A DNA stretch of 64,000 bases from Microthyrium microscopicum (lineage: Eukaryota): positions 1,027,359 through 1,091,358 of the forward strand of contig MU004241.1 of the NCBI GenBank assembly GCA_010405405.1, in the 5' to 3' direction. Each line of letters starts with the position of its first letter. Positions within the stretch are counted from its first letter, which is position 1. Below are positions 3,109 through 45,100 of this stretch, piece after piece. Under the pieces are notes generated by a model. The model was not told where the DNA came from, did no database searches, and saw nothing but the letters and a program-made list of their open reading frames with translations. The position numbers and the translations under genes were made by a program.

Positions 3109-3429
3109 GCCGAGGAACCTTCGGAGGTAGGATGGCCGGGAATAAGGGAAATCGCGAACGCGTCGTTTGCTAAAGCATAATGCAGGATCCGATAAGTTTG
3201 TGAGCTCTTTTAATCATGGCGACGAGTACCAAACGACCCGCAAGCTTCGATCGGTTTGAACAGGAGATGAGATGAGAACTGGGGACAAGATCTGGGTCCG
3301 TACTTTTTGGTGGCGGCCTCATGTTGAAAAAGAGCTTGGGCCACTTGATGATGATCCATACATTTTCTATCCTTACCTCACTTGATCACCAACCTCAAAA
3401 CATACTGATAAAGGGTCCTTCGCAAGCAG

Positions 3430-4129
3430 ATGATTCCCCGGCCGGCAGTATCTGTTGCTCGAATTGCTCGAAGATACTTCGCAATGGCACAATCCACCCC
3501 CTCCGCAACTCCTGTCGAGGACACAATCCGTTCCAAGGTAAGCTTTCAGCGGATCGGCAATATAAATGGCGCGCTCCCATCATCCTCGTTGGCTCCCAGA
3601 CGCTACGCTCTTTCATCGAGTGCTTTATGCGCCACGAAGGATGTTTAGATTCGAATGGTTCATCGAATATCGTGGGATATAAAGCATCTTCTGCTTAAGA
3701 GCGTTGATGACAGCCATCAGAGTTAATGGGGGGACGCCATCTATTTTGCCATGCCGTTGGCTTTCTAGACTCTGTCTACTTCCAGGCTTACTAGTCTTAA
3801 GATCACAGAGTCAATTTCTCCTTCGTTTCTTGAGATCCATAACGACTCACATCTACACGCACATCACAAGGCAATGCAAGACTCGACGTCGAGAGAGGTA
3901 GGATAAACCCGATTCTGTCATTCTAACAACACTGCTAAAGTCCTTGCAGACGCATTTTCGAGTCTATATCACATCAGCCGCCTTCACAGGAAAGTTCCAG
4001 CCCGCCCGGCATAGGATGGTGTATTCTCTATTGAAAGAAGAAATGGCCAAGGAAGGGGGAATACACGCCCTGCAACTACGAACAAGAACCCCAGAAGAGG
4101 AAGAACAATCCAAAGAAAAGGAACAATGA
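3430..4129 (+). CDS. BolA-family protein (BolA1/Uvi31-like), 3 exons (3430-3537, 3802-3897, ~3950-4129)
   Basis: Spliced product contains LEIHNDSHLHAHH, ETHFRVYITSAAF, RHRMVYSLL and GIHALQL; presequence-like N-terminus. Confidence 0.92.
3547..3759 (+). ncRNA. Candidate intronic structured RNA (long imperfect hairpin) in BolA intron 1
   Basis: Nine nested complementary segments, e.g. 3621-3628 TGCTTTAT/3679-3686 ATAAAGCA, 3605-3612 ACGCTCTT/3697-3704 AAGAGCGT, 3566-3571 ATGGCG/3735-3740 CGCCAT. Confidence 0.6.
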
Positions 4130-4391
4130 CTGAAAGTCTAGTCCTTGATCTCAGGTCCTTTTCTCTCTTTGATACCCATTGAGCCTTTGTTTTCTATTGT
4201 AATCAATTTTTCTCCAGCCATAATGAGCTGTCAAACACAATCAAACACAAACCCATCCACACGATGAAAAAGACAATCGCACGAAACCAACAGCAAGTAA
4301 AGAACCGGGAGCTGGATATGATGTGTCGGCGCACTTTTTGCTCGAACTTTTGGCCACATTCAAGTGAACATGTCCGCCAAAGTTGCAGAAA

Positions 4392-41717: not shown

Positions 41718-42120
41718 TCTTTTTCAGTTGCTGTTTCGGCGCATATAAGAGGTAGACATCGTCAAGCGGAATCGGTTGCATGCGTTAGAAGCTCTGCGCT
41801 GGTCCTGCTGTGGGTTTGGTAGCGTCATAATCTAGAGAGAAGACGGCAGAGTAGAGCATGATGTCTTATCAATCCAAATCGCCCTGTGGTAGTGCGTTGT
41901 AGCCTCGAAGAGCTGAATCCAGAACTCTCACTTCTCTTTTCGACGGTAAAATTGCGAAGAATGACATCTTCCGTCTAGAGAGTTCACCTGCCAATATAGG
42001 AAGAAGCAAAGCAATCGCAGAAGCGGTCACCTCCAACTTGGAAAGCAACTATAGTGAAAGTCATACTATCCATGAAAAGCGGCCTACAGCATGAAGTTAG
42101 CGCATGTCCACGGGAAAAAG

Positions 42121-45100
42121 GAAGAGAAGTTTTTGGACCCCCCCTTTTTGGACCCCCCGTCCTGTAGGGGACCCTAACGCCCATTTTGGGCGCTTAATAG
42201 GGGTAATAGCGTCGCTACTAAATTTGTTAGTAGGCGCCATTTTGGGCCTAAGAGGGACGTATTTAATAGTAGAACTAGTGGGATTAGAAGGTAAGATCTT
42301 AACTAATTCTTAGCTAGTAGGAATTGATTTAAAGCTAAGATTTTAGTTAAAATATTAAATTTTAGTATTAAAGTTAATGCTACTATATAGGTAGAGATAA
42401 AGGAAAGAAGCAACAGTAAAGACAAAGGAAAGGATAGATTTTAAAGTACTTATAATCCTCTACTATTCTTTTAGGTCGTTACGGGAAGAGCATAATATAA
42501 TATTATGCCCTTTTCTACTATATCTTAAATAATACTAATTAACCTAAGTTAGCTCATAATAGCCTATATTTATCTCTTTCTACTTTTTAGCGTCTAGGCC
42601 CTACGTAACCATAGACTCTAGCAAAATTAAAGTATTATTGTTTATAATCTATAAATTATTAATAGAGATTAGCTTTATAGTATACTAAGTAGGGGTACTA
42701 AAGACTTTATTATTGTTAGTATTATTAAGATAGGCCTACTATAAATTATTAATAAACTAGAAGTAGTAGACAAAGTCTATTAGATTAGCACTAATTTTAT
42801 TATTTTAAAGAATAGTAAATGTGTATACGTAAGAGAATAAGTTGTCTTACTAGTAATAATAGCTATAGCTATAAGTAGTAATGTTAACATAGTATTTAGC
42901 TTTATAATAGCAACTATTCTTATTATTATAATAAGTAACTATAGCTATAACCTCTAGGATATCTTTAAAGGTATTAAAGTTAATAGTATATTTAGAAGTG
43001 TACTTATGGGTAGCTTTTAGGTAAACCTTTCCTTAAGTTGTAAGATATTATATTAAGATCTCTTGTCTTTAAGATAACCTTAAAATCTTTAGATTTATAG
43101 CTCGTAGCTATTCTATGCGCTTCTTTATAACTTAATCCTAAATGTAAATAAGTAGTTTAATAAAATACTTATTATGCGCTTTCTTTATTATTAAGTTAGT
43201 AATCTTGCTAAAATTAAATATAGTATAACTATATCTTAACGTAAGAAAGTATTAGAAGTTCTAAAGAGCCTTATCTCCTTAGGTATTAATATAGCTTATG
43301 AAGATTAGATTAACCTATAATCCTTCTTAAATTATCCATTTATAGTAAGCGTTAGTATTAGTATGAGTAAGTTAGTATGTAAGTTGTTTATAGAGCTTAC
43401 TATAAGCGCGTATCTTTATATTTTATACTAAATAGAAGATATAATAGCCTAGCGTGAATTAAGGAAAGGTAAAGGGAATAGTATTCTATAAGCCTTTATT
43501 ATGATTAGAAATAATTATTATTTAGCGACCTATAAATAGGTTAGTTAAAGTAGTAGAAGTAGTATAAAGTTACGTTATAGTAAAGCTATAAAGGGGTCTT
43601 AAAGATATAATAATAATTTAATAGGGTAAATAGAACGAAATAACTAGCTTTAAAGGGGTCTTAGCGTTACCTAATATTAAAATCTTACTTTTAAATATCT
43701 TATCTACTTCTAGTATTACTAGCTTATAGTTTCTATACTACTATAACTACGCGTTATTATTTTTACTCTTAATAATTCCCTACGCGTAAATAATTAATTT
43801 ACTCTTAGAATTAAATCTATAAGCTATAATGAGCTTTAGACTATACTTATTTTAATAATGCGCTACGTTAAAGGTTAAGTATTTAGGTAAGAACTTCTAA
43901 GTTATTTAACTAACAAAAGGATAAATAAAGATACGTTTATAGTACCCCTCTTTAATCTTTAGATACTTCATAATAATTATAAGATTATAGTATATTAACT
44001 ATGCAAGATAAGAAGGAAATAACTTAAAGTTCTTTCTAAAGTTATCTATAAATTTGCTAAAAAGCTTATACTTTACTTTAAGGACCTACTAGTTACTTAT
44101 ATTTATACCTATAATATGCTTTAACATCGTGATAATATCTTTAGGTGCTATTTTGGTAGTAATATGTGCATTCTACGTAATAATCTACCTTAATACTAGC
44201 GTTCAAAATATCTACGCCCTTAATGGGATAGCTATAGTAACGTAGATATAGTTCTTTATAGGATTTAGCTTCGTATAAACCTATACTATATTATTAGTAT
44301 CTTTTAAGCGCTTCTTTAAGGTTATACGCGCGTGCTATTTGCATCTTATAATAGCGTAGTTATAAATCTATTATTTAGCTATATGCCCTAAACTAGTATT
44401 CTTCTTTAAATTATACCCCTCCTTTAACGCGTATAATCACACCTAATTGTTAAAGTCTATAGAAGTTTTAAAAACTATACCTTTAAATAGCTTTTAAGGA
44501 GCATAGATGCCATAGAATGGTAGGCTAAATTCCATATTGAAATGATAAAGATTAGATAAGAATAAGTAAAGTTAAAGAGTAAGATTTTAGTATTTATTAC
44601 TAATATTAGATATAGATATTTACATATTTATGCTAGAATTATTATTAAATACTATTTAGCTATATTCCCTTACTAAATCCTATCCTCTTACGATATTCTG
44701 ATTGATTTTATAATATTAATGGACATTAACGGCGGTGAAGCTATATTAATAGAGATTTCATAACATTTGGCATAGAATTAAACCTATATTGTATATAGAT
44801 ATAATTTAGGTATATTTACCTATAGATTTCTATATCTATATTATCTTCTTGTATATTTTAGACTTGATATTAAGAGATCTTGACTCTCTATCTTTACGAT
44901 CCTAAGCGATAGTGATATCAATACTAGAGTCAAGATCTCTTAATATCCTATCCTATAGATACTTTAGTGATATAATTTACTAATAAAAGCTATATTTTGA
45001 TAGGGAATTTATGAAGCTATAGCTACGTATGTATTGATATATTTTAATAGAGTTGTTAAGCACAATCTAGACTTAGGATTTAATGCGTCTAGAATCCTTT

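Follow-up and report, generated by a model that had tools for sequence, protein, structure and literature searches.

The closest described counterparts of the sequence analysed here come from three sources in fungi and one in yeast. The degenerate MITE families of filamentous ascomycetes are exemplified by 13 EFT-m families of Epichloe festucae (Fleetwood et al. 2011, PMC3227409). According to that description, the families are short and non-coding, carry terminal inverted repeats and have mean lengths of 81–524 bp; they are present in tens to about 100 full-length copies together with many deleted ones, and their mean pairwise identity is 49–90%. Repeats that constitute introns in their own right are represented by the introner-like elements (ILEs; Collemare et al. 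2013, PMC3609843) and by the internally symmetrical sister (stw)introns of the Hypoxylaceae (Fekete et al. 2021, PMC8469720), whose authors take seamless integration to exclude DNA transposition (PMC8469720). Finally, in yeast introns of the RPS17B type, pairing of sequence downstream of the 5′ splice site with sequence upstream of the branch point is described as supporting splicing (Rogic et al. 2008, PMC2536676).

Here, we analyse a palindrome of 213 nt that occupies most of the first intron of a BolA-like gene in a 64,000-nt stretch of DNA, referred to below as the window. The palindrome is very probably a degenerate copy of a MITE-like or foldback-like family of ~213 bp, which inserted into a pre-existing, ordinary intron of this gene. 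The coordinates of the features discussed are collected in the table.

Features of the BolA-like gene and of the element in its first intron (positions are those of the window)
Feature	Position	Strand	Description and basis
BolA-like gene, three exons	3430-4129	+	Pfam PF01722, homologues and spliced contigs
Exon 1	3430..3537	+	36 codons; N-terminal extension, end ...TPVEDTIRSK; translation
Intron 1	3538..3801	+	264 nt, phase 0, GT..AG; spliced contig in run X5
Flanking direct repeat GCTTT, left	3542..3546	.	Putative 5-bp target-site duplication; exact match to 3760-3764
Palindromic dispersed repeat (MITE or foldback-like)	3547..3759	.	213 nt; arms ~80% complementary; termini CAGCGG...CCGTTG
Flanking direct repeat GCTTT, right	3760..3764	.	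Boundary at 3759 independently supported by the loose ends of the copies
AGGCTTAC	3784..3791	+	Holds the weak and only branch-point candidate (CTTAC); complementary to the 5′ splice site GTAAGCTT (3538-3545)
Exon 2	3802..3897	+	32 codons; PF01722 profile positions 1-24, E 9.9e-06
Intron 2	3898..3949	+	52 nt, GT..AG, contains CTAAC; spliced contig in run X5
Exon 3	3950..4129	+	59 codons + stop; PF01722 profile positions 29-76, E 3.4e-20

An earlier, sequence-only reading of the window had proposed a BolA gene with three exons, and this model is borne out by the Pfam match, by alignment with homologues and by splice joints in the contigs of the public run X5. The PF01722 scores are 72.6 bits for exon 3 and 26.2 bits for exon 2, against a gathering cut-off of 25.7 bits; jointly the two exons span positions 1–24 and 29–76 of the 76 positions of the profile, which places the product in the BolA family. 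The N-termini of BolA homologues from fungi can be aligned with exon 1 (TP.ED..R.K), and in these homologues the equivalent N-terminal sequence runs straight into that of exon 2, beginning ITE. The best homologues are no more than 88% identical, and the top named matches are mostly from Helotiales and Dothideomycetes. Exon 1 contains two in-frame methionine codons, M1 and M19. Many homologues start at the position of M19 (MAS... or MAQS...), and the Botrytis proteins have the longer, basic N-terminus in common with exon 1; to judge from the alignment, the two starts may give rise to two isoforms, with and without a mitochondrial presequence. Intron 1 is much longer than usual, as had been remarked, at 264 nt versus 52 nt for intron 2. 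The CTAAC motif of intron 2 is one that we take to fit the fungal branch-site consensus.

Five public runs cover positions 3300–4300 of the window: four DNA runs of one sample and run X5, which is from another study and carries another organism label. The contigs of DNA runs X3, X1 and X4 and of X5 were placed on this stretch at a likeness of at least 80%. X1, X3 and X4 represent a single sample, probably the window's own source, and are not independent of one another. X5 is labelled as RNA by way of a guess. Splicing of intron 1 as predicted is shown by one X5 contig, in which 264 nt bounded by GT..AG are missing at 3537|3802; the joint was reported as 3534->3799 with a cut of +3, and its shorter side is 27 nt where 31 were required. 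The 52 nt of intron 2 are likewise skipped in an X5 contig, again with GT..AG ends and with a shorter side of 97 nt. Cover in X5 falls to zero at 3300–3435 and 3912–3945, and these gaps, taken with the GT..AG joints, indicate that X5 behaves as RNA at this locus. A further X5 contig of 321 nt, matching 3508–3828 with 0 differences, keeps intron 1 unspliced with the element in place; it may derive from pre-mRNA, from a retained-intron form or from trace DNA. If intron 1 were retained, the gene's reading frame, followed from exon 1, would meet a stop codon inside the element at 3646–3648, and translation through the intron gives the 72-residue product that had been predicted. An alternative 3′ splice site at 3785 was considered and rejected, since on reading the sequence it would introduce an in-frame TAG. 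A single X5 contig of 8339 nt contains spliced BolA exons 2–3 and continues from 3948 past 4300; it reflects either overlapping transcripts of neighbouring genes or a merge by the assembler.

The hairpin itself is confirmed. The nine nested stem pairs listed in the earlier reading are all present where it had placed them, comprising 55 Watson–Crick and 2 G-U pairs over 57 positions, and the outermost of them are CAGCGG/CCGTTG and GGCAA/TTGCC. Alignment of one arm against the other shows that they are complementary over ~100 nt: 76 columns match, 19 mismatch and 23 contain gaps. Terminal inverted repeats, by which MITEs and foldback elements are recognised, are therefore present. The predicted folds are also far more stable than expected of their composition, which answers the shuffling check that had been proposed: for the whole of intron 1 (3538–3801), the minimum free energy is −97.4 kcal/mol with a z-score of −5.34, and for the hairpin alone (3547–3759) it is −85.6 kcal/mol with a z-score of −5.57, and in neither case was any of 200 dinucleotide shuffles as stable. 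When 220-nt windows, 1595 in all, were scanned over the 64 kb and their stability was regressed on GC content, positions 3545–3764 came out on top at −3.69 sd, followed by runners-up at −3.23 and −2.96 sd; this ranking compares the registered window 3545–3764 with the nine other top windows, each finely re-registered.

The origin of the hairpin emerges from its copies. According to the earlier reading, the presence of multiple copies in the genome would make the hairpin an introner or MITE rather than a gene-specific regulator, and such copies are what the DNA runs contain: the numbers of matching contig pieces are 186 in X3, 159 in X1 and 173 in X4. One piece in each DNA run covers the entire 1001-nt stretch, and the extra pieces are confined to ~3548–3761. 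In X3, the summed contig depth is at the single-copy value of 881.5 in every bin outside 3538–3775 and rises to 86875 at 3572–3605 (~99-fold) and to 97860 at 3708–3741 (~111-fold). The corresponding ratios for the two arms are 87-fold and 82-fold in X1 and 90-fold and 104-fold in X4; in both of these runs, slight bumps in depth occur outside intron 1 too. Summed contig depth is not equivalent to copy number, and we take from these values only an order of magnitude of ~100. The centre of the element (3640–3673) reaches a depth of only ~13-fold, which implies that most copies differ or are deleted there. The extra pieces listed are situated at the ends of different long contigs (971–22490 nt), each at single-copy depth, and so represent separate loci of one genome. 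Run X5, from the second study, shows the same pile-up pattern with 67 pieces.

The copies have diverged considerably. In X3, 1, 13, 62 and 110 pieces fall into the likeness classes 99% and above, 95–99%, 90–95% and below 90%, respectively, most copies being 80–95% alike. Several have internal deletions, with joints that skip 69–109 nt, or switch strand in mid-element, as is to be expected of a palindromic family. We conclude that the hairpin belongs to a repeat family whose many degenerate copies are dispersed within one genome. A blastn search with a word size of 7 found no second copy within the 64-kb window (next best E 0.57); this is the expected outcome at ~100 copies per genome and lends no support to the repeat family. 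Searches of metagenome contigs with an exact two-arm pattern and with an exact 25-nt pattern from the right arm returned 0 loci each, a result that is uninformative for copies that are 80–95% alike.

The limits of the element can be placed with some precision. No listed piece begins before 3548, 15–18 copies in each DNA run lose their likeness directly after 3759, and in X3, X1 and X4 alike the bin 3776–3809 has the depth of single-copy sequence. Repeat homology thus ends 9–10 nt inside the 5′ splice site and ~40 nt short of the 3′ splice site, and with limits at ~3548–3761 the repeat excludes the splice sites at 3538 and 3801, which are single-copy, as are the last 40 nt of the intron. Directly outside the palindrome, whose symmetric ends are at 3547 and 3759, is an exact direct repeat, GCTTT. 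For this one copy, counted over the positions of the window, such a flanking match has a chance of 0.14% when the ends are held fixed and of 5.5% when 3 nt of slack is allowed at each end. The flanks of the other copies agree with their consensus only to the extent of 0.42–0.57, which fits variable flanks and gives no duplication length; on the downstream side, where the agreement is only 0.42–0.43, the flanks are evidently unrelated. Target-site duplications of TA, of 8 bp and of 9 bp were sought and are absent at the palindrome ends and within 3 nt of them. The element is short (213 nt) and contains an in-frame stop, and it appears to be non-coding; its length does not allow for a transposase.

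Removal of the element and of one GCTTT from intron 1 leaves 46 nt, close in size to intron 2. Since the length of this remainder does not divide by 3 and a stop codon lies in frame within it, the flanks were intron, and never coding, before the insertion. This bears directly on the possibility that the repeat is an introner or introner-like element that created intron 1 on landing in coding sequence, bringing or co-opting its splice sites. Multiple copies, a length far in excess of the neighbouring intron and a very stable predicted fold are indeed hallmarks given for ILEs (PMC3609843). Repeat homology, however, stops short of both splice sites, and the 46 nt of non-repeat intron, being out of frame and interrupted by a stop, were not exon. 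A weak argument against an introner is the abundance of the family in the RNA-like contigs of X5, where some of the 67 pieces have a depth of 245–625, unlike what would be seen for efficiently spliced introns.

The introner explanation also makes the position of intron 1 a recent acquisition, on which the gene models of other fungi can be consulted. A regular-expression search of the 120 homologues listed found 62 that carry the motifs on both sides of the exon 1/exon 2 junction. The junction is contiguous in 57 of them, and the other 5 have insertions of 8–21 amino acids exactly at this point, three of which begin with V, end with Q and are 17–21 amino acids long. Insertions of this form would arise by read-through of a phase-0 GT..AG intron of 51–63 nt. 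The three V...Q insertions are in deposited models of other fungi (P0008, P0054 and P0075); models P0012, P0020, P0058, P0066, P0074, P0091 and P0108 likewise have an insertion at the junction, or else start inside that stretch and have Q before the exon 2 motif. Insertions and mid-stretch starts of these kinds probably reflect introns that the annotators left unspliced or placed a start in. On the evidence of these models, other fungi would have an old intron of ~51–63 nt at the same phase-0 position, which argues, indirectly, against a recent gain. With the splice sites outside the repeat, a remainder that was never coding and an intron position apparently common to other fungi, the introner suggestion of the earlier reading does not hold in its strict form, and we regard it as very unlikely.

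The sequence-only reading had further suggested that the G-U pairs and internal loops point to selection on the RNA rather than to a DNA palindrome. The two strands are, in fact, nearly indistinguishable in this respect. The antisense strand of the hairpin folds with the same energy as the sense strand, −85.6 kcal/mol (z −6.56); of the 70 pairs in the sense fold, 6 are G-U, as are 5 of the 73 pairs in the antisense fold. In the alignment of the arms, 3 mismatches are of the G.U type and 5 of the A.C type, the latter becoming G.U on the other strand. With near-equal counts and identical energies, the G-U pairs carry no signal of selection at the RNA level. The hairpin has the appearance of a decaying DNA palindrome, and selection on the sense RNA is without support. 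A search of positions 3300–4200 against Rfam 15 gave four rows at chance level (E of 2.6 or more), scoring 12.8–18.8 bits against gathering thresholds of 35–64. Moreover, membership of a family of ~100 copies means that no local selection is needed to account for the hairpin structure.

These observations weigh heavily against the proposal that the hairpin is a gene-specific cis-regulatory RNA, selected to gate the splicing or retention of intron 1 under, for example, iron or oxidative stress. What commends this proposal is the location of the hairpin, which has the 5′ splice site on one side and a weak branch point on the other, the truncation of the protein to 72 amino acids that retention would bring about, the occurrence in X5 of the unspliced 321-nt contig beside the spliced form and the presence of an additional 8-bp helix that would join the 5′ splice site to the branch region. 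This last helix pairs GTAAGCTT with AGGCTTAC through 7 Watson–Crick and 1 G-U pairs. It is the closing stem of intron 1 in the minimum-free-energy fold and likewise of the 46-nt intron that remains without the element (−11.1 kcal/mol). The helix is thus a feature of the old intron rather than of the element, and may be a product of chance or a splicing brake. The unspliced contig, for its part, may come from pre-mRNA or from trace DNA; levels of retention cannot be read from contigs, and those of X5 give no retention levels, transcript ends or small RNAs. Since, in addition, the structure is strand-symmetric, lacks an Rfam family and is derived from a repeat family, the hairpin does not stand as a gene-specific regulator, and we consider selection for such a role to be highly improbable.

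Overall, insertion of a repeat into an ordinary intron accounts best for the locus, and the following sequence of events can be envisaged. A non-autonomous, palindromic DNA transposon, whose mobility we infer from its anatomy, would have landed in an intron of ~46 nt, 9 nt beyond its 5′ splice site, probably with duplication of 5 bp (GCTTT). The rod-shaped RNA fold would then simply be the transcript of the element's inverted arms. As these arms zip up, the 213 nt would be looped out, leaving the donor and the branch site about as close to one another as before. With the original splice signals still near each other, the spliceosome would be able to remove the enlarged intron. The locus can thus be seen as a natural experiment in which a 213-nt rod, placed 9 nt from a 5′ splice site, has made a 46-nt intron grow nearly sixfold and splicing is still accurate. 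Accurate splicing despite such an insert is consistent with the looping out of surplus intron length by stems.

An origin by transposition is compatible with later roles for the RNA. In plants, small RNAs are known to arise from MITE hairpins, and the hairpin might, like other copies of its family, be diced to milRNA or siRNA. It offers a long, near-continuous stem of 70 pairs that is transcribed within an expressed gene; there is nothing in the sequence of this copy to set it apart from the others, and we view a role as small-RNA precursor as improbable. Domestication, whereby the hairpin would tune splicing versus retention, and with it the 72-residue truncation, of a BolA protein of mitochondrial type or would feed double-stranded intron RNA into RNAi, is a speculation to which we attach very little weight. 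Were it correct, a repeat family of ~100 copies would be tied to the control of an Fe–S assembly factor.

The more general lesson is one of caution. Very strong folding z-scores in long introns of fungi are just what a nested inverted-repeat transposon yields, and a screen of such hairpins for genomic copies and for strand symmetry should come before any label of riboregulator. Elsewhere in the window, the blocks 1–1000 and 42001–45000 have GC contents of 13.8% and 25–31%, respectively, versus ~46% in the remainder. These AT-rich blocks are full of degenerate inverted repeats, among them a pair with 37-nt arms at 44851–44887 and 44926–44962, and they have the look of transposon remains degraded, we presume, by repeat-induced point mutation.

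Comparison with the systems introduced at the outset places the element closest to the MITEs. Like the EFT-m families as described, it is short (213 nt), has ~100 genome equivalents, and has copies that are mostly 80–95% alike, some of them internally deleted. The target-site duplications given for the EFT-m superfamilies (TA, AT, TWY, 8 bp and 9 bp; PMC3227409) differ from the possible 5-bp duplication seen here, which matches none of these. The present element is, furthermore, palindromic nearly throughout, and in a comparison made by description only, the long-TIR Mutator-type families are the only ones among the EFT-m set that are similar. The host lineage probably differs from that of the EFT-m families, to judge from the BolA identities and the taxonomy of the matches given above. 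A family of ~213 bp that possibly duplicates 5 bp may not have been described before, but it is of a well-known kind.

With the ILEs, as they are characterised by Collemare et al. (PMC3609843), the element shares a multiplicity of copies, a length greater than that of regular introns, a stable fold and removal by the spliceosome. ILE copies, in contrast, are whole introns with donor, branch point and acceptor, and mark recent gains, whereas the element here is nested in an older intron. The (stw)introns resemble it in being intronic, in having long inverted repeats (theirs are terminal and of 45–55 nt), in the possible formation of double-stranded intron RNA and in intragenomic proliferation (PMC8469720). 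They are reported to integrate seamlessly as complete introns, without flanking duplications (PMC8469720); our element, on the other hand, is flanked by a 5-nt repeat and lies inside another intron.

For the behaviour of the enlarged intron, the yeast introns provide the nearest parallel. Stems of the RPS17B type shorten the distance from the 5′ splice site to the branch point (PMC2536676), and the hairpin described here is similarly placed and would do likewise. By analogy, a shortening of this kind is the likely explanation for the continued splicing of an intron enlarged fivefold. The yeast stems are, by the account given of them, gene-specific and tied to splicing efficiency (PMC2536676), whereas the stem in the BolA-like gene is a by-product of the arms of a transposon.
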